DNA of 64,000 nt, taken from an uncultured cyanobacterium. GTDB lineage: Bacteria; Cyanobacteriota; Cyanobacteriia; Phormidesmidales; Phormidesmidaceae. Made by a program: the position numbers and the translations under genes. The notes below the pieces were generated by a model. The model searched no databases. It was given only the letters and a program-made list of their open reading frames with translations, and was not told the DNA's origin. Shown here in pieces: positions 47,336 to 60,721 of this stretch (position 1 is its first letter; the number at the start of each line of letters is the position of its first letter). The stretch covers positions 32,001-96,000 of the forward strand of contig CAWBZI010000004.1 of NCBI GenBank assembly GCA_963793265.1. The letters run 5' to 3'.

Positions 47336-48244
47336 ATGACGCAGCTGCAAAAGAGCGATTTAGCAGAAAAAAACGACCGCTGGGACACCTGGCAAGCATT
47401 CAAGGCCGATCAGCAAGAAATGCTGCTACCTGCGGGCATGGCCGCTCATATTTCGGTAACTATTCGGTACATAGACGAGGGAGAGCCAGCGCAGGGTACT
47501 GTTTTGCTAATGCATGGTATTCCGACCTGGGGATATCTGTATCACGAGATTATTCCGCCTTTGGTGCAAGCAGGCTATCGAGTGCTGGCACCCGATTTTT
47601 TAGGGCATGGCTGGTCGGATAGACGCGATCGCTTCGACCGTTCCTTTCAAGCTCAGGCAAAAATGATTGTCTCCTTCCTATCGGTGCTCGGCTTGAGCGC
47701 AGTAGACGTTGTTGGTCATGATACTGGTGGGGCAGTCGCTTTAATTCTGGCAATTGAACATGCGGCCTGTGTCAACCGTCTTGTGATTACAAACTCAGTC
47801 TGCTACGACCGATTTGACGACGATATGCTTGATTTTGGTCATCCGCTCAGGTGGAAGTCTCGCCCTCTATCAGAGCTGGTTGAGGCGCTAGAAGAGAGTC
47901 TTGATATGGGTATTACAAACAAAGCGAGACTTACCGATGATTTTAAGGAAGGTATTATTGCACCCTGGGCTAGCAAAGAAGGTAAATTAAGCCTGCTTCG
48001 CAACGCCTCTGCGCTCAATGCAAATCAAACAATGGCCCTTGTTGATCGCCACAGCAGTATTTCTGCGCCAACGCTAATTTTATGGGGTATGGACGACCCC
48101 TGGCAAAAGTCGGAAGATGGAAGACAGCTAGCAAGTGAGATTCCGAATGCTATCTTTGAACCCATAGAAAATGCATCTCATTGGATACAACAAGATACGC
48201 CAAAACAGTTTTTTAATGCCGTTCTCGCGTTCTTTAAAAACTAG
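47336..48244 (+). CDS. Alpha/beta hydrolase (epoxide hydrolase / haloalkane dehalogenase-like)
   Basis: HGIPTW, APDFLGHGWS, nucleophile elbow GHDTGG (Asp), ASHWIQQD. Confidence 0.85.
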   Translation: MTQLQKSDLAEKNDRWDTWQAFKADQQEMLLPAGMAAHISVTIRYIDEGEPAQGTVLLMHGIPTWGYLYHEIIPPLVQAGYRVLAPDFLGHGWSDRRDRFDRSFQAQAKMIVSFLSVLGLSAVDVVGHDTGGAVALILAIEHAACVNRLVITNSVCYDRFDDDMLDFGHPLRWKSRPLSELVEALEESLDMGITNKARLTDDFKEGIIAPWASKEGKLSLLRNASALNANQTMALVDRHSSISAPTLILWGMDDPWQKSEDGRQLASEIPNAIFEPIENASHWIQQDTPKQFFNAVLAFFKN

Positions 48245-48302: not shown

Positions 48303-51245
48303 TCACAAAACCTGGTCTATTTGCTGTGCCAGCTCAAACACATGAGGCGGGCGAAACATGCTCATATGACCACCCGAGTTAGTGATTACTTTGATATCGC
48401 CTTGAACATAGCGCGACCAACCTAAATCATTCTCAACAACGACTTCGTTTTCAGGTGTCTCAAGTGCTCGAACGACCAAAAGATTATCAGGATAGTGGGA
48501 TAGCGTGTATTGCTGGGCGAGTTTGCTATGGTGGCGACGAGCGGTTTGGGTTAGCGTACTGCTTGGACGCTTGGGCTGTTCTTGAAAGCTGCTATGTTTT
48601 GCTAGAAACCTGCTAATTTTGCCTTGTTCATACTGGTAGCGCTTGACTATTTTGGCTTTCATGTAGCTAAGGCCGTCTTCGCGAAACTCTTGCCAGTAAG
48701 CTTGATATCTGCTGGCGGTAGATTCTACGTACCGGGCTCCTGGGGCGTGGTGGTCAAACAATATTAGCTGCGCTACAGATTCGTTCTGCTTAATAAGCTG
48801 TTGCGCGATTTCGTAAGATAGTAATCCTCCGAAGGAAGCGCCGCCTAAGTAGTAAGGGCCGTGAGGCTGGATGAGCTGAATTTGTTCGATGTAGTATTTG
48901 GCGGTTGCTTCAATGCTGTTGAATGTGGGGCTCTCTGCATCTGCAAAGGCTGATGTGACGCCGTAGATAGAGCGATGGGTTTTTAGGTGCTGAACGAGTG
49001 GCTGATAGAAGAGAACGCTTGACCCTAATGCATGAATAAGGAATAGTGGTTGATTTTTAGCGCTATCTGTTTGTTTTTGATCAGGTCTTAGCGGGATAAT
49101 CAGGGAGGGTGTGACCGTTGTTGTGTTGGGTGCTTTGGAATCAGGGCTTGTAGCGTTTTTGTTGGATTCTATGGTGAGTAGCTGTGCGGCGATCGCGCGA
49201 ATGGTCGGCGTTTGAAAAAGCTGGTTGAGTGGAAATGCTAGGCCGGTTTGGTGTTCGAGTGCGGCAAATGCCTGCTGGGCTAGGATTGAGGTGCCGCCTA
49301 AGTCGAAGAAACTATCGTCGATGCCGATAGGACGAACGCCGAGACAATCTTCCCAAATCTGTACGAGATTTTGTTCTAGTGGCGTATGCGGTTCGGCAAA
49401 GGCGTTGGTGAGGACATCGGCAGATTTTGGTCGAGAAAGAATAGGAGAGGGCGTAGTAGCGTTGGATAAAAGCCAGTAAGACTGATGGTCGAAGGCGTAG
49501 GTTGGCAGATCTACAAATTGGCAACAGGTTGAGCTGTAGAGCTTTGACCAGTCAATTTTTACGCCTTTTTCCCACTGCTGAACAAGATGCTGGAGGGCAG
49601 TGATTCTCTCTGTAGGCGCAGCCCCTTCTCTGGGATAGGTTTCGGATGAGAGGGTCTGACGCTGGGCGCGCCGGGTGATTGTTTGGCCGATGGGGTCTGA
49701 AGACTTGTAGGCGTGTTCGAGCTGCTGTTGGAGGTCTTGAAAAGAGGTGGTGACGATTGCCAGGCGACGAGAGAAGTGCGATCGCCGCCTACTTGCTGTG
49801 TAGCAAACATCCCTTAAACCCCAGCCTTCTTGCGCGCCTAGAACCGTTTTATAGCGGTGGATAAGCCCTCTCAATGCCTGCTCGCTTTTGGCAGAGAGCA
49901 CTAATATCTCTGGCTGACTATGGCGCGATGTATCGGCTTCAATATTGGCGCTATCTAGTCCTGATAGCACCATATGAACGTTGGTACCGCCTAATCCAAA
50001 TCCGCTGATGCTGGCGATCGCACCGCCATTTTCACCATCATCCTCATCGCCAGCCCTCTGAGGCCAATCCATCAGCGCTGAAGGCAATTTGAGCTTTGCT
50101 TTGTGCCAATCAATGTAATCGCTAGGCGTTTGGCAGTGTAGATGGGGCGGAATTTGCTGGTGGTAAAGCGAAAGCGCCACTTTCATCAGCCCTGCCATAC
50201 CAGAGGCCACTTCTGCGTTGCCTATGTTTGTTTTCACAGAGCCCACAGCACATGGATTATCATCATCACGCGCTGCTGAGAGCACTTCACCGAGCGTATT
50301 GAGTTCTAGCGCATCGCCTAGCGGCGTACTAGACCCGTGAGCTTCGACGTATTGCACCCGGTTAGGCGCAATGTCTGCCTGCTGATAGGCCCTTTGGATG
50401 AGATCTTTTTGCGCTTTGGGATTTGGCCCGGTGAGTCCGTTGCCCCTGCCGTTGTGGTTGAGGGCGCTGCCTTGAATAGTGGCATAGATGCGATCGCTAT
50501 CTTCTACCGCTACCTCTAGTGGCTTAAGAATCACGACGCCTGCCCCTTCACCGCGAACGTAGCCGTCAGCGTTCGTGTCAAAAATTCGACAGCGATCGGA
50601 CGTGGAGAGAAATCCTGTTCCTTTTAATCTTTTAGTGGTTGTATCCGACAAAATCAGGTTGATGCCACAGACGATAGCCATGGTGGATTCGCCGCAGCGG
50701 ATACTTTGAACGGCTTGATGTATGGCGACTAATGACGAAGAGCAAGCTGTATTAATTGCAACGCTTGGCCCCTGAAGATTTAGCTGATATGAGAGTCGAT
50801 TAGCGGCAATACAAGGGTTAACGCTTGTCGCGCCATAGCTATCATCGTTAGCTTTTGCAAAAGACTTTGTTATCTGGTCGTAGCGGCTGTCTACGATGGC
50901 TGTAAAAACGCCTGTACGACTTCCGGCTAAATGGGCAGGTACCTGTCCGGCATCTTCTAGTGCTTCCCAGGCAATCTCTAGCAGTAGGCGCTGCTGAGGA
51001 TCTAGCGAGTTTGCCTCTTCGGGTGTGATTCCGAAGAAATGAGGATCGAACTGGTCGATATCTGATAAAAAACCGCCTACCGTCTCGTCTGTGTCTGCTG
51101 GAAAAAGTGCCTGTCGCTCAGGAGAGGGCAAGGCAATGGCGTCTTTTCCCTGCTTTAGCATCTGCCAAAATTCGTCTGGTGACTTAGCGCCCGGAAAGCG
51201 ACAGCCAAGACCAATGATTGCAACTGAGGTTTGAGATTTTGACAT
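48303..51245 (-). CDS. AT-less type I PKS: KS (non-canonical)-carrier protein-thioesterase
   Basis: DPQQRLLLE, TACSSS, HGSST, NIGNAE; LVLSAKS...LPTYAF linker without an AT GHSxG motif; FFDLGGTS carrier; GASFGG thioesterase. Confidence 0.9.
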   Translation of the reverse strand: MSKSQTSVAIIGLGCRFPGAKSPDEFWQMLKQGKDAIALPSPERQALFPADTDETVGGFLSDIDQFDPHFFGITPEEANSLDPQQRLLLEIAWEALEDAGQVPAHLAGSRTGVFTAIVDSRYDQITKSFAKANDDSYGATSVNPCIAANRLSYQLNLQGPSVAINTACSSSLVAIHQAVQSIRCGESTMAIVCGINLILSDTTTKRLKGTGFLSTSDRCRIFDTNADGYVRGEGAGVVILKPLEVAVEDSDRIYATIQGSALNHNGRGNGLTGPNPKAQKDLIQRAYQQADIAPNRVQYVEAHGSSTPLGDALELNTLGEVLSAARDDDNPCAVGSVKTNIGNAEVASGMAGLMKVALSLYHQQIPPHLHCQTPSDYIDWHKAKLKLPSALMDWPQRAGDEDDGENGGAIASISGFGLGGTNVHMVLSGLDSANIEADTSRHSQPEILVLSAKSEQALRGLIHRYKTVLGAQEGWGLRDVCYTASRRRSHFSRRLAIVTTSFQDLQQQLEHAYKSSDPIGQTITRRAQRQTLSSETYPREGAAPTERITALQHLVQQWEKGVKIDWSKLYSSTCCQFVDLPTYAFDHQSYWLLSNATTPSPILSRPKSADVLTNAFAEPHTPLEQNLVQIWEDCLGVRPIGIDDSFFDLGGTSILAQQAFAALEHQTGLAFPLNQLFQTPTIRAIAAQLLTIESNKNATSPDSKAPNTTTVTPSLIIPLRPDQKQTDSAKNQPLFLIHALGSSVLFYQPLVQHLKTHRSIYGVTSAFADAESPTFNSIEATAKYYIEQIQLIQPHGPYYLGGASFGGLLSYEIAQQLIKQNESVAQLILFDHHAPGARYVESTASRYQAYWQEFREDGLSYMKAKIVKRYQYEQGKISRFLAKHSSFQEQPKRPSSTLTQTARRHHSKLAQQYTLSHYPDNLLVVRALETPENEVVVENDLGWSRYVQGDIKVITNSGGHMSMFRPPHVFELAQQIDQVL

Positions 51246-51277
51246 GATGGCGTTTGAGTAAGGCTGGCTGTGATGGG

Positions 51278-52366
51278 CTAGTTGATAGGGGCAGGTGAGT
51301 TGCCTAATGCCGCAAGAATTTTGCGATCGCCGCTATACGATCGCCGTCCGTGGGCTACCAAGAAATTGTCGAGCACTAGCACGTCGCCTTTTTGCCAGGA
51401 GAATACGGTAGCTTCGCTATCGGCGCAGTCGCAGAGGGTCTGAATTTCTTCGGGTGAAATGGGTGAGCCGTCGCCATAGGTGGCATTCATTGGCATGTTT
51501 TCTTCACCGATCATGTTGCACAATAGCTGTCCTGCTTTACCGTAGGCTCCGTAATGAAATATTTGGGGCTGACAGAACCACACAGTTTCGCCTGTGATGG
51601 GGTGCTGGGTGATCGCAGGCAAAACCTGATGGGTTACTAGGGTGCCGTTCTCTTTCCAGACGTATTGAATATCGCTTTGGTTTAAGAACGCTTCTACTTC
51701 GGTGCGATCGCTGGTTTCAAACTGTTGCTGCCAGGGCTTTCCTAGTAGCTCAAATGGTTTCTGCTCACCATCGACCATGTTTTTTGTATAGCGAATTTTC
51801 CTATCTAAAAAGCGCTGACGCAAATCTGCTGGAATCTTTTGATAGATAGCGGCGGTACTGGCAATAGGCGTTTGGCCCTCTGTTGCTGGCGGCGTTTCGC
51901 AAAAGAACACTATTTTGTGAGGTGCCCAGCAGGTGTAAGACAGCTCAGTATGAAGCGGGATGGGTTTGGAGGCTACGTAGTTTGTAGAAGTGTAGATTAG
52001 ATTATGAACCCGACTGCGAGGAGAACTTCCTTGCGTATAAGGCACACATTTTATTTGAAGGGCGATGACGACCTGCTCAAACATTTCAGCAGTTTGAACG
52101 CCGCACCCTCGCAAAAGAATACCGCCGTGCTTTAGTAAAGTCTCTTCGATCCAGCGTCTATGTTCTGTTATCCATGTCAGCAAAAGCTTGAATGCGTCAT
52201 CCTCAGACTCCGGCATGGTTAGCACTAGCGGGAGCAAGCAATCTGCTGCAAACAGAGATGCCCTGAGGGGTTGCGGGCAGTGCATAGGGGCAATCGTTAT
52301 TGGCATGTCTAGTTCTTTACAATATTTGGCTGCTGATAAAACCGGCTCGAAACGCTGCCTTATCAA
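51278..52366 (-). CDS. TauD/TfdA (SyrP-like) Fe(II)/2-oxoglutarate dioxygenase
   Basis: HGGILLRG, IPLHTELSY (HxE), WQKGDVLVLDN..VAHGR; start TTG 52366 (overlapping the P450 stop) or ATG 52306. Confidence 0.88.
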   Translation of the reverse strand: MIRQRFEPVLSAAKYCKELDMPITIAPMHCPQPLRASLFAADCLLPLVLTMPESEDDAFKLLLTWITEHRRWIEETLLKHGGILLRGCGVQTAEMFEQVVIALQIKCVPYTQGSSPRSRVHNLIYTSTNYVASKPIPLHTELSYTCWAPHKIVFFCETPPATEGQTPIASTAAIYQKIPADLRQRFLDRKIRYTKNMVDGEQKPFELLGKPWQQQFETSDRTEVEAFLNQSDIQYVWKENGTLVTHQVLPAITQHPITGETVWFCQPQIFHYGAYGKAGQLLCNMIGEENMPMNATYGDGSPISPEEIQTLCDCADSEATVFSWQKGDVLVLDNFLVAHGRRSYSGDRKILAALGNSPAPIN

Positions 52367-53604
52367 ATTGTTTTAAAAGTAATGGGTAAAGACTTTAATC
52401 CTCTGAGGGTGATGCTCTCTCGCCAGTCTAGATGATCCGTATTTAAGGAAATGTCGCAGCAGCGCTCTACCAAAGACTGAATCGCGATTTGCCCTTCAAT
52501 GCGAGCGAGGGCCGCGCCGAGGCAGTAGTGCATTCCGCCCCCAAACGGCAGATTGTTGAGCTGGCGCGTCCAGTCTAGCTGGTCAGGATTTTTGCAGTAG
52601 TCAGGATCGCGGTTGGCCGCGCCCAAACAAACAATTACTTTCTCTCCTTTCTTGATGGTTCTATTGCCTAGCTCAATATCTTCGCTAGCGAGCCTGGCTA
52701 GTACCTGTACTGGGCTGTTATAGCGCAATAGTTCTTCTACCACCGGGCCGATTTTATCAGGATTATTTCTAACAAATTCAATCTCGTCAGGCTGCTGTAA
52801 TAGCGCCAGTATGCCATTGCCAATCAGGCTTTTGGTCGTTTCTTGCCCAACGATAAACAGCATGATACAAAAGCCAAGAATTTCATCCTGGCTCAACTTT
52901 TGGCCCTGATCACGAGCCTGGATCAACTGACTAATCAGTCCGTCTGTCAGCTCAGCTTCTTGCTGCGCAATCAAGTCGCGCAAGTATTCTCTCGCTTCGA
53001 TAGCGACCTGATTTTGCCTTTGGTAGCCTTCTAACGACATAGGCTGATCGAATACAAAGAAGAGATCGTTCGACCATTCGCTGAGCTTGTGAGCGTCGCA
53101 ATCAGGCACACCGATGATGCGAGCGATTACCATGGCAGGCAGTGGATTAGCCAGATCGCTCATCACGTCCATTTGCCCCTGGCTGGTGGCTTGCGAAATG
53201 AGATCGTCTACTAGCGCCTGAATGCTAGGTCGTAGTGCTTCGATGCTGCTGAAAGAGAATGCTTTGCTGACTAGCGATCGCAGCCGCTTATGATCGTCCC
53301 CTTCTTTAAAAAATAACCATTTGCCGATGGTTTGAGAGAGTGGATTTAAGTTGTCGGGTTCAAGAAAGCGATTTTTTTGCTGCAAGCGCTCTGGTAAATC
53401 ATCTACAGCAAATCGAGGATCTTTTAGGACGAACTGAGCGTCTTCATATCGGGTGATAATCCATGCGCTGAGAAAGCTCCAATGCACCGGGTCTTCTCTG
53501 CGTAAGCGCTCGTACGTAGGGTAGGGGTTGGCGTGAAACTCTGGTGAAAAGGGGTTGAACTTTACGGGAGTGGAAAGCACGGGTAGTAGGCTTGTATTGA
53601 ACAA
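52363..53604 (-). CDS. Cytochrome P450 (CYP107/BioI-like)
   Basis: NPYPTYERLR, I-helix VGQETT, ExxR EELLRY, heme motif FGGGMHYCLG. Confidence 0.92.
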   Translation of the reverse strand: MFNTSLLPVLSTPVKFNPFSPEFHANPYPTYERLRREDPVHWSFLSAWIITRYEDAQFVLKDPRFAVDDLPERLQQKNRFLEPDNLNPLSQTIGKWLFFKEGDDHKRLRSLVSKAFSFSSIEALRPSIQALVDDLISQATSQGQMDVMSDLANPLPAMVIARIIGVPDCDAHKLSEWSNDLFFVFDQPMSLEGYQRQNQVAIEAREYLRDLIAQQEAELTDGLISQLIQARDQGQKLSQDEILGFCIMLFIVGQETTKSLIGNGILALLQQPDEIEFVRNNPDKIGPVVEELLRYNSPVQVLARLASEDIELGNRTIKKGEKVIVCLGAANRDPDYCKNPDQLDWTRQLNNLPFGGGMHYCLGAALARIEGQIAIQSLVERCCDISLNTDHLDWRESITLRGLKSLPITFKTI

Positions 53605-53652
53605 ACGGGTTAATGACTTAGATTTAATAGCTTAGATAAGGGCTAAGGGCGA

Positions 53653-55752
53653 TTACTGCGCGGATGTAGCTCGGTTGAATAAGTACTGACTGAGCACTTC
53701 AATGTTGGGATATTCCCAGAACAAAGTGGGCTCTAGGTGGCAGCCTAACCAGTCTGCTAATTCGCCAGTTAAACTCATTGATACCGACGAGTCGAGTGCG
53801 TATTCAGAGAATGAGACTTCAATGTCGATATCGTCTGGATTTTGCTGAGTTGATTCAGCAACTTTGTCAATTAGCCAGTCCTGTATTACAAACTCGGTGA
53901 TTTCTAGCCTCTCGCTGTTTTTGACGGCTGGCGCGTCTGTTGCAGATTTTATGGACGCTTGAGATTCGACTGGCAGTATAGTTGGTAGTTCGTCTATAGG
54001 TGCTGTAGTCCCGACCCACTCACCTACTGTTTGTAGTGCGCCTGTTGTGAAGGCTGTTTTGCACGCCTGGCGCTGGACTTTGCCGCTGGATGTTTTGAGC
54101 AGGCTGGCGGTTTTTATGAGCGCGATCGCATACACCTGAATGTCGTGCTGCTCGGCTACGGCCTGCCGAATCGCACTGGCGATCTGATCGCAATCAAAAT
54201 TACGTAGGTGAGTACGTTCAATTTCTTGAACGATGACCAGACGTTCTGCGCCCTCGACTTCTACCGAAAAAGCGGCCCCGCACTCCGGCCTTAGCGCTTC
54301 GTGACTCTGCGTGACTGTTAGCTCAATATCTTGCGGGTAGTGGTTGCGGCCCCAAATAATGATGGCGTCTTTGATGCGTCCGGTGACAAATAGCTCGCTG
54401 CTTCTAAGAAATCCTAAATCTCCGGTGCGAAGGAAAGGCCCCTGTGGCGGTACGTCTGCTTCGTGACTGGCTAAATAGGCACCAAACGTTTCTTCGGTTC
54501 GTTCTGGCTGCTGCCAGTATCCTTGCGATATGCCAGGGCCAGCGACCCAGATTTCTCCGACCTGATCAGGCTTACAGCGCGTTTTCTGCTGTGGATCGAC
54601 AATGGCGACGCGTGTGTTTAAATGCGATCGCCCGCATCCTACTAAAACGCGGGTGGCTGATTTTGATAGCCCATCAGCTTCGACAATTCGATGACGCGCC
54701 AGTTCATCGGCGCTAACTTCAATGAAAACGGGGGGCTCATCTACGCGCCCGCCAGTGACCATTAGCGTTGCTTCTGCCATGCCGTAGCAGGGATAGAAGG
54801 CGTTGGGGCTAAAGCCACAGCAGGCGAACTTGGCTGCAAACGCATCCAAGGTTGGCTGGCGGACGGGCTCAGAGCCGCTGTAGGCACTTTCCCAGCGGCT
54901 CAGGTCGAGCTGGGCCATCGCTTCGGGTGCGATTTTTTGAGTGCATAGCTCGTAGCCAAGGTTAGGGCCGCCGCAGTGGGTCGCTTGGTAGTCGGAAATA
55001 GCCTGTAGCCATCGTATAGGCTTTTGGATGAAGCTGCCTGGCGACATGAGCACGCCTAAGAAGCCTGTGTATAAAGGCTGGATAATGCCGTCGATGAGGC
55101 CCATGTCGTGAAAGCTGGGTAGCCAGGTGACCGAGACGCTTTTGGGTGAGAGGGCGAAGGCGGTTTGAATGTATTTTGAGTTGTGTGAAAGGTTGTCGTG
55201 GCTGACAATGACGCCTTTGGGTGAGCCGGTGGAGCCCGAGGTGTATTGGATGAAGGCAAGCGGCTGGCTGTTCGGGGTTTGCCAGGTTTCGATTAGGCTG
55301 GTGCGCGCTGCGGTGGGGATGCTGGCGACTGTATCGGTGGCTATCCACGCTAGCTTTGAGAGGGGCGAGTCAGTGGGAATTTGCTTGTTTATTAGCGGCT
55401 GTACGCTGCTGTTGGTGAGGGCAACTTTGGCCTGAGAATTGGCTGTGATCGCTTCTAACCGAGTAGTTTTTTGACTGCGCCGGGGCAGCGCTGCTGGCAC
55501 CGCAATGACACCTGCATACAGACAGCCGAAGAAGGCTGCAATGAAGTCTAACCCTTGAGGATAGAGGAGCAGCGCTCGGTCGCCGCAGTCTACTGTGGCC
55601 TGCAATTGAGCAGCGATCGCTCTGGCTTGCTGGTCGAGTTCTGAGTAGGTGATGTGAATGGCATCTGCTTCACCATCAATCAGAAAGGTATAGGCTTTTT
55701 GGTTGGGCTGATGTTGCGATCGCCAATGAAGCACGTCTGATAGGCTGTCCAA
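53653..55752 (-). CDS. Fatty acyl-AMP ligase fused to ACP
   Basis: QYTSGSTGSPKG, WLPSFHDMGLI, CYGMAEATL, FAAL-type insertion before LVGCG, RTGDLG, KTSSGK; C-terminal ACP with LDS; true start may be ATG 55768. Confidence 0.92.
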   Translation of the reverse strand: MDSLSDVLHWRSQHQPNQKAYTFLIDGEADAIHITYSELDQQARAIAAQLQATVDCGDRALLLYPQGLDFIAAFFGCLYAGVIAVPAALPRRSQKTTRLEAITANSQAKVALTNSSVQPLINKQIPTDSPLSKLAWIATDTVASIPTAARTSLIETWQTPNSQPLAFIQYTSGSTGSPKGVIVSHDNLSHNSKYIQTAFALSPKSVSVTWLPSFHDMGLIDGIIQPLYTGFLGVLMSPGSFIQKPIRWLQAISDYQATHCGGPNLGYELCTQKIAPEAMAQLDLSRWESAYSGSEPVRQPTLDAFAAKFACCGFSPNAFYPCYGMAEATLMVTGGRVDEPPVFIEVSADELARHRIVEADGLSKSATRVLVGCGRSHLNTRVAIVDPQQKTRCKPDQVGEIWVAGPGISQGYWQQPERTEETFGAYLASHEADVPPQGPFLRTGDLGFLRSSELFVTGRIKDAIIIWGRNHYPQDIELTVTQSHEALRPECGAAFSVEVEGAERLVIVQEIERTHLRNFDCDQIASAIRQAVAEQHDIQVYAIALIKTASLLKTSSGKVQRQACKTAFTTGALQTVGEWVGTTAPIDELPTILPVESQASIKSATDAPAVKNSERLEITEFVIQDWLIDKVAESTQQNPDDIDIEVSFSEYALDSSVSMSLTGELADWLGCHLEPTLFWEYPNIEVLSQYLFNRATSAQ

Positions 55753-55988
55753 ATTTCTGCTCAGACATATTTTCGGACAGCACTGATATCGAAGGCGAAG
55801 CGTTCATATGTCTAAGCTATTTCTTTAGATTGTTTTATAAGGTTTCCATCATTTCTTGATGAGTAAGACCGTATTAAGCCCTAACAATTGCGCGATCGCC
55901 TATCAGCTTGCGTACATTCACGAGATCGCTAATCACGTATCATTTGGCTTGTTAGGTGGTTTGTTAGGACTGCGATCATAGCCATAAC

Positions 55989-56023
55989 AAAAAAGCCTTA
56001 TCTACAAATTAGATAAGGCTTTT
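55989..56023. terminator. Bidirectional terminator-like hairpin
   Basis: AAAAGCCTTATCTA-CAAAT-TAGATAAGGCTTTT; separates the 56103-56450 gene from the FAAL upstream region. Confidence 0.75.
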
Positions 56024-56102: not shown

Positions 56103-56450
56103 CTATGATTCTATAGCTGCTTTTGCATTTTCAGTCACGTCTTTTGCCATATCCAAATAGTCATCCGGATCGCTGTCTCCGGGGCTATTAATCGCATCGA
56201 CTTTACCGCCGCTGGTCGTTGAGCTTGACTTACCGGCTGTTCCGGCGGCACCCTCTTTGCGATTTACAGGATTAGGATCGCTCGACTGCGTGCCTGAGCC
56301 GTTCTTGTTTGCCTGAGCAATGTCGTACTCTTTATCGAAGTTGGTTTCAGCAACGTCTGTTTTCGCTCTTTCTGAGACAGCTTCATCGCTGCTGCTCATA
56401 TCATCTTTGAGCTGGTTGGCTTCTTGAGGGATGTTGTTTGGATCTGCCAT
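56103..56450 (-). CDS. Small hydrophilic, probably disordered protein
   Basis: 115-aa D/S/G/K-rich ORF with GGAGG RBS and a downstream terminator. Confidence 0.7.
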   Translation of the reverse strand: MADPNNIPQEANQLKDDMSSSDEAVSERAKTDVAETNFDKEYDIAQANKNGSGTQSSDPNPVNRKEGAAGTAGKSSSTTSGGKVDAINSPGDSDPDDYLDMAKDVTENAKAAIES

Positions 56451-56601: not shown

Positions 56602-58110
56602 ATGGTGAGTAGCGTAGCGCAGCAGAAAGTAGTAGTGATTGGAGCCGGGATTGGTGGCTTAACGGCGGCGGCGCTGCTAGCGCATCGGGGCTACGGTGTG
56701 AAGGTGTTTGACCAGGCAATTGTGCCGGGGGGCTGTGCGTCTACGTTTAAGCGGCGCGGATTTACGTTTGATGTGGGGGCAACTCAGGTGGCTGGATTAG
56801 AACCTGGGGGAATTCATTACCAGATTTTTGAGGAGCTGGGGATTGATCTGCCGCCTGCGAGCCATTGTGATCCGGCCTGTGCGGTGTTTTTGCCGGGGGA
56901 GAATGAACCGATTAGCGTGTGGCGCGATCCGGCGAAGTGGAAGGCAGAAAGGGAACGGCAGTTTCCGGGGAGTGCGCCTTTTTGGAATTTTATGAAGGCG
57001 CTCTTTGACTATAGCTGGCGGTTTCAACAGCGTGATCCGGTGCTGCCACCGCGTAGCCTGTGGGATATTTGGCAGTTGTCCGCGGCGGTGCGGCCCGATA
57101 CGCTATTGACGGTGCCGTTTACGTTTTCGACGGTGGGTGAGATTTTGCGAGGGTATGAGCTGTACGATAATCGGCGGCTACGGACGTTTTTGGATATGCA
57201 GCTAAAGCTGTATTCGCAGACGACGGCGGATAGGACGGCGGTGCTATATGCGGCAACTGCTTTGGGGGTGTCGCAGGCTCCGCACGGGCTGTACCACTTG
57301 AAGGGGAGTATGCAGGTTTTAAGCGATCGCCTCCACCAGTCCCTAGAAGCAAACGGCGGCGAACTCCACATGCGCCATACTGCCGAGGCCATTGAAATTG
57401 AAAACGGCAGACCTACTCAAGTGAAGATCGCTAGCCGAAAAGGAGAAAGCTGGATAGAAGAAGCCGATCATGTTGTCGCTAACGTTACAGTGCAAAATCT
57501 GGTTCGCTTGGCGAAAGACAATAGAATGAAGGGCTACGAAAAAAGAGTGGGTAAGCTTGAGCCTTCTTCGGGTGCCTTTGTAATTTACTTAGGGGTAGAA
57601 CAAGCTGCAATTCCTGAGAACTGCCCGCCCCATCTACAGTTTATGTATGATTATGACGGGCCAATTGCCGAAAATAATTCTCTTTTTGTCTCGGTAAGCC
57701 GCCCAGGAGACGGACGTGCGCCGGAAGGTAAAGCGACGGTGATTGCCTCTTCTTTTACAGAAGTGCAGCAGTGGTACGACTGTGATGAGGCGGCATATAA
57801 GGTGATGAAAGAGAGATATACACAAGAGGCAATCTCCCGATTAAAGAACTACTTCGATCTGCGGCCTGAGCATTTGGTACATGTGGAGGCTGCGACCCCG
57901 AGGAGCTTTGAGACATTTACGGGGCGCGATCGCGGCATCGTCGGCGGCATTGGTCAAAGTGTACCGACCTTCGGCCCATTTGGCTTTGCGACCCGTACGC
58001 CAATCAAAAATCTGTGGCTAGTCGGTGACAGTACTCACCCAGGAGAAGGCACAGCGGGCGTAAGCTATTCGGCCATGACAGCAGTACGACAGATAGAAGC
58101 GGGTGCTTGA
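56602..58110 (+). CDS. crtD: Carotenoid C-3',4' desaturase
   Basis: GAGIGG FAD motif, FDVGATQVAGLEPGG, GDSTHPGEGTAGVSYSA. Confidence 0.85.
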   Translation: MVSSVAQQKVVVIGAGIGGLTAAALLAHRGYGVKVFDQAIVPGGCASTFKRRGFTFDVGATQVAGLEPGGIHYQIFEELGIDLPPASHCDPACAVFLPGENEPISVWRDPAKWKAERERQFPGSAPFWNFMKALFDYSWRFQQRDPVLPPRSLWDIWQLSAAVRPDTLLTVPFTFSTVGEILRGYELYDNRRLRTFLDMQLKLYSQTTADRTAVLYAATALGVSQAPHGLYHLKGSMQVLSDRLHQSLEANGGELHMRHTAEAIEIENGRPTQVKIASRKGESWIEEADHVVANVTVQNLVRLAKDNRMKGYEKRVGKLEPSSGAFVIYLGVEQAAIPENCPPHLQFMYDYDGPIAENNSLFVSVSRPGDGRAPEGKATVIASSFTEVQQWYDCDEAAYKVMKERYTQEAISRLKNYFDLRPEHLVHVEAATPRSFETFTGRDRGIVGGIGQSVPTFGPFGFATRTPIKNLWLVGDSTHPGEGTAGVSYSAMTAVRQIEAGA

Positions 58111-59069
58111 GACTGAAGGGCTACCGAGTTGCTGGGGTATTGAATATTCCAGACTAGGCCAACGTACCTTAAGGCGTTGATGATATTCCAGCTTGGATCG
58201 ATCTGTTCAGGATGCAAACTGAACTTAGCGGCATGAGGAAACGCCTTGTGGTTGCTCTGCCAGCATTCACCCACGGTTAGTAGACCTGTAATCCGGCTAA
58301 GCATAGGTCTTTGCGATTTGCGCGGCTTTTTATAGCCTTTCTTTTTATAGCCTTTCTTTTTATAGCTATTGTGGAGCGGGTGATGCGTTAGGTACTCAAC
58401 GAGCCACTGTCCGGTTGTGCTAACCGCGATGCGCATATAAATTCCCCAAAACACCCAGCTCCAGCCGCCAAAGTAGTAAAAGGCTAGTGCCCAAGGTAGC
58501 TGCTGGAGCATCCAGGTTCGTTCTAGCAGGGTATAGAATCCGTTGTCAGCAATCCTGGATTCGTGGCGAAAAATTGGAGGATAGTGGAGCTGAATACTAC
58601 AGTGCAGGTTCCAAATCCAATCGACTAGGATATTGCGGCGGTTGTTGAAGTAGGGGTGGCAGTTGGGCTGACGCTGTGCCCAGTCGCGCAGGTCGTGCCT
58701 TTCGATGAGGGAGAATGGCCCGCCGAGGCCTGCTAAGACGCCTAGATAGACGAGGCTGTTTTCTAGCCACTGGTGACACTCAAAGCTGTTGTGAACGAGG
58801 CGACGGTGAATGCCGACAGAGTATCCTGCGCAGAGGGTAGTGAAGGTGGTGACAACGAAGAGTAGAAAAGCGTCCCAATAAAATGTTTGGTAGCCACCGA
58901 AAATAGCGCCTGCGTAGATGAAGCTTATCCACAGGGACTTGGTAGGCGACCAGTACACCTGGCCGAAAATAGCACTAGAGTGACCTTTGTTAGAATCTAC
59001 TCGGCCTACGGCTGGATCTCCCGTTGCTGGGTTGCCCGTTTTTAGGTCAATTGAATGGGGGCTAATCAT
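58065..59069 (-). CDS. Membrane acyl desaturase-like protein with degenerate His boxes
   Basis: HRRLVHNSF, HDLRDWAQR, GECWQSNHKAFP; TM segments. Confidence 0.75.
   Translation of the reverse strand: MISPHSIDLKTGNPATGDPAVGRVDSNKGHSSAIFGQVYWSPTKSLWISFIYAGAIFGGYQTFYWDAFLLFVVTTFTTLCAGYSVGIHRRLVHNSFECHQWLENSLVYLGVLAGLGGPFSLIERHDLRDWAQRQPNCHPYFNNRRNILVDWIWNLHCSIQLHYPPIFRHESRIADNGFYTLLERTWMLQQLPWALAFYYFGGWSWVFWGIYMRIAVSTTGQWLVEYLTHHPLHNSYKKKGYKKKGYKKPRKSQRPMLSRITGLLTVGECWQSNHKAFPHAAKFSLHPEQIDPSWNIINALRYVGLVWNIQYPSNSVALQSQAPASICRTAVMAE
58326..58366. repeat. 15-bp tandem repeat, about 2.7 copies (YKKKG)
   Basis: CTTTTTATAGCCTTT x2 plus a partial copy. Confidence 0.9.
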
Positions 59070-59212
59070 GACACGTTGGCGCGCTAGCGAGCGCTAAGGA
59101 GAGGGGGCACGCTCTGTCTATCTGTCACCTTCATAATATGTTGATTTTAGTTTGGTGACGAAATAAACTTAACGATTTTTTTACACAAACCTTGCGGATT
59201 GAAATAGGGGCT

Positions 59213-60721
59213 ATGGCGGCAGATAGTTTTCAGCGAGCGTTAGATTTGATCAGTATTGAGATGCCTTTTGAGGCGCTACCGTTGTTAAATGAGACGATCG
59301 CTGCGCAGCCGGAGCGGGTTGAAGCCTATGTGCAGCGGGCAAAGGTGCGGCGTAGGCTGAAGGATAATGAGGGGGCGATCGCTGACTATACCCAGGCAAT
59401 TAAGCTGGCCCCGATGGCGGCGGTGTATCTGGCGCGGGCGCTGGTGTGGCTGAGCTTGGAACAGGTGAAGGGGGCGATCGCAGATAGTCGTGAGGCAATT
59501 AGGCTGGCCCCTGAACTGGCGGGCGGGCATCGGCTGCTGGGGAAGTCGTTAGGGCAATTGGGTGATGGGGAGGGGGCGATCGCGGCTTATAAGCAGGCGG
59601 CGCGATGCTACTTGAATGATAAAGACAAGGAGAATGCGCAGGCTTGTTTGAATGCGATTGGGCCGCTGCAAAGGCTGCCAGCTTTTGAATATGCTCAGCC
59701 CTCGGGCTCTCAACAGTCTACGGGCGGCGCTCGGTCTTTTGAGGGTGTAGACGCTGCGGACTATATGCGATTAGTGCGGGCGAAGTATGACGCGGGTGAG
59801 TATGCGGCGGCGATGAAGGATTTGAACTGGCTGCTGGGCTGCGATCCGACTCAGGTGGATGCGCTGTGTTTGCAGGGTCTAATTCACGCGCAGCTAGGGC
59901 GAAGGGAGCTTGCGGTTACTAATTTGGCGCTGGCGAAGCAGCAAAAGCCTGGCGACCCTGAGGTGCAGTTTTGTCAGGGGCAGATGCGGTTGATTTTGAA
60001 AGATGGCTACGGGGCAACAGAGGAGTTTTCGGCGCTGATTGCTCAAGCTCAGCAGACCCATAGTCCGGTGGCGAAGTATTTTGCAGCTAGGGGGGATAGC
60101 TACCGGCTGATTGGAGATTTGGATGAGGCGTTTAAGGACTATTCAAATGCGCTGGCGATCGATTCTGAGAATGCGGCGCTGTATGAGCTGCGAGCGAAGA
60201 CTCAGCAGTCGATGAATGGGGTGGATGGGGCGATCGCTGATTTTCAAAAGGCAGCGACGCTATGGCTGAATAAAGGAGACTGGCGCAGGCATCAGCGCGT
60301 GGTGGAGTCGGTTCGCGCTTTAAGATCCAAAGGTAGCAGCGACGCTTCGCCGCGCAATAGCACTGTGGTGCCGATCAAACACTTTACGAATCAGCGGCCT
60401 GTGGTGGACGTGCTGTTTGACGGTATCTCTACGTTTGAGATGGTGGTAGATAGAAATGCCACGCATTCTATCGTGACGCAGCGGATGGCGAGCCTATTGA
60501 AGCTGGAGGCAGTGAGCTATCAATATGTGTATTTGTTGGACGGTACGCCGATGGAGCTGTCGTTGGGACGGCTAAGATCGGTGCGATTGGGTGGGGCTGT
60601 GTTTACGGATGTGTATGTAGCGATCGCGCCTGATAGCGCTACGCCGGTACTCGGTAAAGACTGCTTTAGCCCCTATAAGGTGCAAATTAGCGGTAACGAG
60701 CTTATCTTTGTTCGTCGATGA
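59213..60721 (+). CDS. TPR-repeat protein with C-terminal retropepsin-like domain
   Basis: Multiple TPRs (GAIADYTQAI, AFKDYSNALAI); C-terminal PVVDVLFDG..FEMVVDRNATHS...VLGKD. Confidence 0.8.
   Translation: MAADSFQRALDLISIEMPFEALPLLNETIAAQPERVEAYVQRAKVRRRLKDNEGAIADYTQAIKLAPMAAVYLARALVWLSLEQVKGAIADSREAIRLAPELAGGHRLLGKSLGQLGDGEGAIAAYKQAARCYLNDKDKENAQACLNAIGPLQRLPAFEYAQPSGSQQSTGGARSFEGVDAADYMRLVRAKYDAGEYAAAMKDLNWLLGCDPTQVDALCLQGLIHAQLGRRELAVTNLALAKQQKPGDPEVQFCQGQMRLILKDGYGATEEFSALIAQAQQTHSPVAKYFAARGDSYRLIGDLDEAFKDYSNALAIDSENAALYELRAKTQQSMNGVDGAIADFQKAATLWLNKGDWRRHQRVVESVRALRSKGSSDASPRNSTVVPIKHFTNQRPVVDVLFDGISTFEMVVDRNATHSIVTQRMASLLKLEAVSYQYVYLLDGTPMELSLGRLRSVRLGGAVFTDVYVAIAPDSATPVLGKDCFSPYKVQISGNELIFVRR

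Follow-up and report, generated by a model that had tools for sequence, protein, structure and literature searches.

What would a cyanobacterium make with four adjacent genes that encode a fatty acid-activating enzyme, two oxygenases and a ketosynthase lacking its acyltransferase? The question is raised by a locus in a 64,000-nucleotide stretch of DNA from an uncultured member of the Phormidesmidaceae (assembly GCA_963793265.1, contig CAWBZI010000004.1, positions 32,001 to 96,000; hereafter the window). At 48303-55752 on the minus strand of the window lie four consecutive, co-oriented open reading frames (ORFs) of 699, 413, 362 and 980 residues. They encode a fatty acyl-AMP ligase fused to its acyl carrier protein (FAAL-ACP), a cytochrome P450, a TauD/TfdA-family Fe(II)/2-oxoglutarate oxygenase and a ketosynthase (KS)-carrier-thioesterase (TE) protein. 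We think it probable, though well short of assured, that the four genes form a thiotemplated line that would start from a free fatty acid and yield an oxygenated fatty acid, or a lactone, by loading, hydroxylation, passage over a non-elongating KS (KS0) and release by the TE. The reading frames and Pfam assignments agree with an earlier note on this DNA as to gene number, orientation and domain classes. Pfam likewise found no acyltransferase (AT), ketoreductase (KR), Condensation or second adenylation domain among the four proteins, as that note had claimed.

Four proteins and an acyltransferase-less ketosynthase

The predicted loading protein (53653-55752, minus strand; 699 residues) matched the Pfam families AMP-binding (2.5e-65), DIP2-like FAAL C-domain (2.2e-11) and PP-binding (1.1e-11). 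Its top three NCBIfam models were all FAAL families (458 bits for PRK05850, 417 for FadD32, and 402), all under their curated cut-offs, and the best CoA-ligase model scored below them at 294 bits; by these best family matches the loader appears closer to FAALs than to acyl-CoA ligases. The fused carrier, ACP1, corresponds to the PP-binding domain at residues 625-691 and presents the phosphopantetheine-accepting Ser in an LDSS motif. Homologues align from residue 1-3 of the product that starts at TTG 55752, and the right end of 55768 assigned previously is an ATG out of frame with the FAAL gene.

The second protein (52363-53604, minus strand; 413 residues) is a CYP107-like P450 with a Pfam p450 match of 1.2e-31. 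Its best matches in the PDB, both full length, were BioI (3ejb, 2e-84) and PksS (4yzr, 2.4e-81); BioI was solved in complex with ACP (PDB 3ejb). The heme Cys lies in FGGGMHYCLG and the I-helix carries VGQETT, and the P450 fold, the heme-Cys loop and the I-helix acid/alcohol pair were all present in a full-length alignment to 3ejb. The substrate of BioI is a fatty acyl chain attached to a carrier (the solved complex contains acyl-ACP), and the chemistry of PksS differs from that of BioI. The likeness of the window P450 to BioI (CYP107H1) and PksS of Bacillus subtilis in the heme-Cys loop and I-helix is at the family level and does not imply the C-C cleavage chemistry of BioI; the window enzyme, moreover, belongs to a FAAL-ACP/KS cassette and not to a biotin operon. 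No ferredoxin gene was found in the cluster.

The third gene (51278-52366, minus strand) encodes 362 residues when read from TTG. Its product matched Pfam TauD (1.5e-40) and no NCBIfam family. The metal triad H139-x-E141...H339, whose His/Glu/His are invariant with the orthologue from Cronbergia, predicts a hydroxylase-type enzyme and not the HxA/G halogenase form. The intergenic gaps of 48 nt and 32 nt given earlier are correct. The TTGA overlap between the P450 and TauD genes amounts to 4 nt if TauD starts at TTG 52366, but homologues align from Met21 (ATG 52306), as does the Cronbergia orthologue; the latter start, with a 342-residue product and a 56-nt gap, is probably the real one. SyrP-type members of the TauD family are β-hydroxylases of nonribosomal peptide synthetase (NRPS) pathways. 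They share with the window enzyme the TauD fold and an HxD/E...H triad, and the second carrier of the window cluster is PCP-like (PCP, peptidyl carrier protein). The cluster differs in activating no amino acid, so that the TauD substrate would be a fatty acyl chain. We found no described case of TauD-family hydroxylation of a carrier-bound fatty acyl chain in the literature examined.

The fourth protein (48303-51245, minus strand; 980 residues) matched Pfam families for the N and C halves of KS, the KS-AT linker, PP-binding and Thioesterase. By these matches and its motifs it is ordered as KS, KS/AT linker, post-AT linker, PCP-type carrier (motif FFDLGGTS) and TE, the AT being missing between the two linkers. 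Alignment with a related KS-AT-ACP-TE protein assigned window residues 5-530 to the KS and linker and residues 561-592 to the post-AT linker, with about 355 AT residues of the relative replaced by about 30 in the window (residues 531-560). The protein thus appears to be a cis-AT-type module, descended from a KS-AT-type module, from which the AT has been cleanly excised. The best PDB matches of the KS were 7zma, CurL and PksJ, with Pks13 among the better ones; 7zma and PksJ come from trans-AT systems and CurL from a cis-AT system. Neither the cluster nor the rest of the window's contig encodes an AT domain. The genome's one free-standing AT is a 294-residue FabD-like frame on contig C5, and the single phosphopantetheinyl transferase (PPTase) is also off the window's contig. 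A trans-AT polyketide synthase (PKS) was rejected as a description of the cluster because no dedicated free-standing AT is encoded with it, the sole genomic AT being FabD-like and on another contig. In the TE, the Ser of GASFG, the Asp of LFDHH and the His of GGHMS align with the triad positions of the NRPS TE 4zxh, which carries Cys at the nucleophile position where the window has Ser.

The KS active site consists of Cys168 (TACSSS), His303 (EAHGSST) and Asn341 (KTNIGN), Asn replacing the second His of the NIGH motif. This second His is the one catalytic motif not intact across the FAAL-ACP, P450, TauD, KS, carrier and TE. Cys168 was invariant in all 16 aligned sequences. When the motifs of 28 KS sequences, the window's included, were tabulated, the second His was lost in 15 (13 Asn, 2 Ser). 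Six of these 15 had also lost the first His (to Asn or Gln), and all 15 kept the Cys. The 15 formed one clade in a maximum-likelihood tree with support 100/99. The window KS paired with that of P0002, followed by G534, P0004 and P0005, in a five-member subclade whose members are all KS-ACP-TE and share 50-64% KS identity. The KS-ACP-TE layout is kept in further members of the family as well, and others in the clade are KS-ACP alone, KS-ACP-C-A-T-TE (C, condensation; A, adenylation; T, thiolation) or fusions to TPR repeats; in the 1342-residue database protein P0007, for instance, KS-ACP-TE is joined to numerous TPR repeats. The sister group has the canonical Cys-His-His but, at least in part (Cronbergia, SU2 and Pseudanabaena-type sequences), lacks the AT as well. 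Retention of the Cys while both His drift is the pattern expected of a transacylating KS0, and the window KS, with Cys168 kept and at least one catalytic His lost (Asn341), would fit that type.

Related cassettes in other genomes

The gene order of the window is more than chance, since it recurs in 14 other loci chosen for a P450 of 46-74% identity to that of the window. FAAL-ACP lies directly upstream of the P450 gene in 12 of these loci (45-60% identical to the window protein), and the remaining two begin at a contig end. Downstream, 12 have a gene whose product opens with KS, and the remaining two are cut inside the P450. TauD is present in only four of the 14, with zero to two TauD and one or two P450 genes per locus. 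The endings vary between TE, C-A-T-TE, a separate NRPS and KS-AT modules. The conserved core is therefore FAAL-ACP, BioI-like P450 and KS-carrier, with TauD and a second P450 optional and the ending interchangeable. It is this neighbourhood alone, FAAL-ACP upstream in 12 of 14, that points to a carrier-bound substrate for the window P450. A metagenome scan added seven loci with P450 identities of 54-61%: FAAL-ACP was upstream in six, the seventh starting at a contig end, and KS was downstream in five, two ending inside the P450. One of the seven had two TauD genes and one had two P450 genes. Within the order, a P450 at E ≤ 1e-90 was found in 6 of 173 genomes, the window's own included, and in 3 of 45 other genomes of the genus. 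The window cluster is a member of a sparsely distributed cyanobacterial family of at least 15 loci, not a one-off or a decayed remnant.

Several of these loci illustrate how the ending is exchanged. The same-genus genome G534 carries FAAL-ACP (60% identity), P450 (72%) and KS-ACP-TE (50%) without TauD. Cronbergia sp. UHCC 0137 (L033) has FAAL-ACP, TauD, two P450 genes and KS-ACP-TE, and the unicellular cyanobacterium SU2 (L034) has FAAL-ACP, TauD, P450, a 488-residue protein without a family, and KS-ACP with a 260-residue tail. The closest KS relative with gene context (51% identity), from Cyanobacteria bacterium J06554_1 (L032, the G435 contig), stands at a contig start in the order P450, TauD, KS-ACP-C-A-T-TE; in L066 a KS-ACP is followed by an NRPS. 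In these last two loci the cassette plainly serves as a lipid starter that is handed onward. G551 shows FAAL-ACP, P450 and KS-ACP followed by an NRPS.

In G450, FAAL-ACP and P450 precede a type I PKS (L067; G450:C11, 2171-9328, minus strand) of KS, AT, dehydratase (DH), KR and ACP fused to a C-terminal choline/carnitine O-acyltransferase domain (PF00755, 3e-137), an off-loading domain associated mainly with fungal PKSs. In G541 (L068; G541:C141, 4978-19236) a single row of genes encodes two FAAL-ACP, the second split over two frames, P450, KS-AT-ACP-TE and type III PKS, together with methyltransferase (ICMT family), sulfotransferase and halogenase (FAD type); the locus looks like a halogenated, sulfated alkylresorcinol-type cluster. 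In Cronbergia sp. UHCC 0137 (L031, 2092-6381) only a few kb separate the related cluster from genes resembling nifU, nifS and nifB, and a zinc alcohol dehydrogenase gene stands ahead of its FAAL-ACP. In SU2 the 488-residue Pfam-less protein between the P450 and KS genes is encoded at 12269-13735 of L034, a gap of similar size occurs there in L069 and L073, and in L034 the KS gene is followed by those for a GT4 glycosyltransferase and an aldehyde dehydrogenase.

TauD homologues were traced separately. Relatives with 44-55% identity occurred only in related cassettes (L032, L033, L034 and, in two copies, L070). A search of 401 genomes sampled across the phylum gave matches at E ≤ 1e-20 in 44, the sole close relative being in G166 (52% identity) and the others, at no more than 42%, lying in NRPS settings. 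A two-sequence profile run against species-representative genomes returned 27 loci, L032, L033 and L034 among them. At about 40% identity, the relatives belong to cyanobacterial NRPS clusters, some as fusions to NRPS genes, and probably act on aminoacyl carriers. Those in Nostocales-type NRPS loci (L003-L030) were rejected as instances of the same cassette, as none of the 28 had FAAL or P450 in flanks of about 1.5 kb. A Protein Atlas search with TauD retrieved generic TauD clusters only, and the second-best PDB match, 9yut, described in the available text as a sulfoquinovose dioxygenase (PMC12951627), is uninformative here. Outside the cyanobacteria, in Pyrinomonadaceae and other Acidobacteriota (L037-L039, L044, L045 and L053), a TauD gene 39-43% identical to the window's stands directly ahead of an NRPS beginning FAAL-ACP-C-A-T; these loci may be a parallel case of TauD acting where a lipid chain is started. 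A CmlA-type diiron β-hydroxylase is encoded nearby in L037.

The proposed pathway and its alternatives

In the pathway that we favour, the FAAL would adenylate a fatty acid and load it onto ACP1, where the P450 and the TauD enzyme would each hydroxylate the bound chain; by analogy with SyrP-type β-hydroxylases, TauD may act near the thioester. The KS would serve as a KS0-type transacylase, perhaps a gatekeeper, moving the oxidised chain from ACP1 through Cys168 to the PCP-like carrier without elongation, and the TE would then hydrolyse the thioester or lactonise it onto a new hydroxyl. Other parts of the genome would have to supply the PPTase and a redox partner, as well as malonyl transfer should it be required. 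An order of activation, oxidation, transfer and release had been put forward in the earlier note; it is largely plausible and is also the best reading here, strengthened by the loss of the KS His with the Cys kept, by BioI, solved with ACP, being the best relative of the P450, and by the conserved synteny.

Several points weigh against this pathway. KAS III enzymes use a Cys-His-Asn triad. The Cys-His-Asn of the window KS, in which the first His is kept, mimics them, and residual condensing activity may persist. The AT-less cassette relatives with canonical Cys-His-His (L033, L034 and L072) mean that the ancestral pathway may have included one elongation with an AT acting in trans. The carrier-bound substrate of the window TauD, finally, is suggested by family and neighbourhood only, and its relatives at 40% identity lie in NRPS clusters.

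An elongating KS is a minority possibility to which we give real weight. A FabD-type AT would load malonyl in trans onto the second carrier, and a C2 extension would yield a β-keto acyl thioester that the TE could release as a β-keto acid (and, by decarboxylation, a methyl ketone) or that could close through a nearby hydroxyl into a tetronate-, pyrone- or lactone-type ring. Such chemistry is consistent with the Cys168 and first His (EAHGSST) kept in the window, with the AT-less KS-ACP-TE family members that have an intact triad (L033 of Cronbergia, L072 and the Pseudanabaena-type P0066-P0079) and with the free-standing FabD-like AT in the genome; Asn, moreover, can donate to the oxyanion hole, as in KAS III. 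Loss of the second His in 15 of 15 clade members and of the first in 6 of 15 argues instead that decarboxylation is no longer selected there. The second carrier is also of PCP type (FFDLGGTS) and not a typical malonyl-accepting ACP, and no AT gene lies in or near the cluster. Mid-chain cleavage of the BioI kind is less probable again, and we regard it as improbable. Successive oxidations, TauD giving one hydroxyl, would cut the ACP-bound chain to a pimeloyl-like half-thioester for release by the TE as a diacid, which might go into biotin, for example, or a different cofactor. Among solved structures BioI matches the P450 best and over its full length, the substrate would be carrier-bound as it is for BioI, and several P450 relatives are automatically annotated by one source as 'pimeloyl-[acyl-carrier protein] synthase'. 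PksS, however, matches almost equally well, and nothing in the evidence assembled here supports C-C cleavage by the window P450. The cassette is too rare for a housekeeping precursor (outside the window's own genome, the P450 reaches E ≤ 1e-90 in 5 of 172 from the order and 3 of 45 from the genus), a patchy distribution on which a biotin-precursor role was judged unlikely, and its relatives feed NRPS modules or type I/III PKSs, as would a lipid starter of secondary metabolism.

The cluster might also make nothing, being what is left, silent or in decay, of a more extensive FAAL-PKS/NRPS cluster, but this we consider very improbable. The earlier note had allowed for such a deleted remnant, and some observations point that way: the module looks like a KS-AT type with the AT deleted and a catalytic His of the KS lost, and its relatives are joined to larger assembly lines, NRPSs among them. 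No RNA run containing the locus was found; six DNA metagenome runs from two studies contain part of it. It is not a recent wreck, however. The four frames are open with all other catalytic motifs intact, the KS-ACP-TE layout is kept in the five-member subclade and in further members, and G534 retains FAAL-ACP, P450 and KS-ACP-TE (50-72% identity), a sign that purifying selection has acted for a long time.

A bolder version of the hydroxylate-and-release pathway is doubtful, though worth stating. In it, an uncharacterised AT-less KS clade (Cys-His/Asn-Asn), a TauD enzyme acting on a carrier-bound fatty acyl chain and a BioI-like P450 would together make a self-contained, four-gene cyanobacterial route to small poly-oxygenated fatty-acid lactones or acids of a new class. 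The KS would do more than simple shuttling, either gatekeeping for the fully oxidised chain or forming an ester or C-C bond between two carrier-bound chains.

Genomic setting, precedents and significance

Upstream of the FAAL gene, a hairpin with a 14-bp stem and flanking A and T tracts (55991-56023, minus strand) came from a scan for terminator-like sites that is weak evidence taken alone (9 sites found against 11.8 expected in shuffles). The terminator reported previously is a real hairpin but does not terminate the cluster: it follows a 115-residue ORF and precedes the FAAL gene, insulating the 5' side and marking the 5' border. The 238 nt between (55753-55990, minus strand) presumably hold the operon promoter, and the one weak sigma-70-like match there (56004-55975, 9 of 12 positions) is no better than in shuffles. 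At the other end, Pfam bears out the convergent hydrolase gene, an alpha/beta hydrolase at 47336-48244. No other megasynthase gene is encoded in the window, whose longest remaining frame is 782 residues. The 115-residue ORF (56103-56450, minus strand) has no Pfam family and no likeness to anything. A 334-residue ORF (58065-59069, minus strand), also without a Pfam family, has a weak, partial DesA-type desaturase likeness (6e-6). A 509-residue protein (59192-60721, plus strand) carries TPR repeats and a C-terminal retropepsin-like aspartyl protease domain (PF13650/PF13975).

Where 1.9 HIP1 sites (GCGATCGC) would be expected in the window, 73 are present, of which 11 fall within 48303-55768, in line with the ten or more sites counted earlier. 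The density in the cluster (1.5 per kb) is like that of the window overall (1.1 per kb); it shows cyanobacterial ancestry and long residence in HIP1-rich cyanobacteria, as the earlier note had suggested, but cannot show long residence in this genome. To the right of the cluster, an amine-oxidase-like gene occurred in 43 of 46 genomes of the genus (identity 82-91% where the match was full length) and is a core gene, and the hydrolase gene on the left occurred in 15 of 46 and is accessory. The two lie on different contigs in the compared genomes G514, G526, G530, G541 and G551; in the last two of these the cassette and the hydrolase do not share a contig either, nor do the cassette and the amine-oxidase-like core gene in G534. 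Both neighbours were therefore rejected as cluster members, given the separate contigs and their differing distribution in the genus, and the cluster is an accessory unit in a variable region. In three genus relatives (G552:C8, G545:C28 and G542:C1) the amine-oxidase-like gene matches in two pieces, one G552 piece having two internal TGA codons; these may be split or broken copies.

Two described pathways come closest to the proposed flow, the likeness being drawn from their published descriptions. For chlorosphaerolactylate (cly; Sphaerospermopsis/Anabaena), the available part of the report has the FAAL ClyA and the ACP ClyB load dodecanoic acid, the halogenases ClyC/D act on acyl-ACP, ClyE (KS0-AT0-(DH)-T, without an active-site His) proposed as an acyl-chain shuttle, and ClyF (C-A-KR-T-TE) finish the chain (PMC7923214). 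As far as that description goes, cly shares with the window FAAL loading, on-carrier tailoring, a His-lacking KS as proposed non-elongating shuttle and TE release, and the P450, TauD, KS-ACP-C-A-T-TE order of L032 closely parallels ClyE plus ClyF. It differs in tailoring by dimetal-carboxylate halogenases in place of P450 and TauD, in FAAL and ACP being separate and not fused, in an AT that is inactive where the window's is wholly absent, and in an NRPS module where in the window the TE directly follows the second carrier. For fischerazole (fsh; Fischerella), the accessible text describes the FAAL FshA, ACPs, halogenases, a P450, FshL, proposed to hydroxylate C-8, and a PKS, FshH, whose KS lacks one His; feeding of a labelled C16 acid fits non-elongation (PMC13548996). 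An FAAL-activated fatty acid, a (proposed) chain-hydroxylating P450 and a non-elongating PKS that passes the chain on are thus shared, but by the same account the fsh chain goes on to thiazole-forming NRPS modules, the PKS keeps an inactive AT, and no TauD hydroxylase is described there.

Other systems are more distant. Olefin synthase and FadD32-Pks13-type systems also lead from FAAL-ACP to a type I KS module ending in TE, but with an AT and a canonical KS that elongate or condense the chain, and with no P450 or TauD; olefin synthase, in the portion of the source available, adds KR and sulfotransferase (ST) domains (PMC11837247). The nocuolin (noc) cluster was rejected as a match, its set as given in the accessible text being different: FAAL, ACP, N-monooxygenase, aminotransferase and a KS condensing two acyl chains (PMC5333925, PMC10088813). 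A search of full-text literature, made without MIBiG-type cluster comparison, found no described pathway with the FAAL-ACP/P450/TauD/KS-ACP-TE set, and the words P450, dioxygenase, KS0, non-elongating and hydroxylase are all absent from a 2025 review of FAALs. The claim of an undescribed system was overstated: loading by FAAL/ACP, tailoring on the carrier and a KS that shuttles without elongating have already been proposed for cly and fsh, as far as the available texts go (PMC7923214, PMC13548996). Standalone novelty was overstated too, the four genes belonging to a broader family of cassettes that can do without TauD, and their KS module being an AT-deleted descendant of a KS-AT-type module with close relatives that are NRPS-coupled. 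Three features are unusual: the KS clade with its Cys-His/Asn-Asn triad, the apparent recruitment of a TauD enzyme to a carrier of fatty acyl chains, and the compactness of the system.

This is one orphan cluster among many, and without a product its importance is moderate. If the proposed pathway is correct, it would provide a very compact, easily expressed system that oxygenates unactivated carbons of a carrier-bound fatty acid regio-selectively, with hand-off and release built in, and a TauD-type enzyme would join the short list of those that tailor FAAL-loaded chains. The family offers natural variants of one starter cassette plugged into TE, NRPS or PKS endings, and it illustrates the decay of a KS-AT module to a KS0 shuttle, from AT present through AT inactive (cly) to AT deleted (window). 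The trio of FAAL-ACP, BioI-like P450 and KS-carrier is a genome-mining handle for orphan cyanobacterial lipids.

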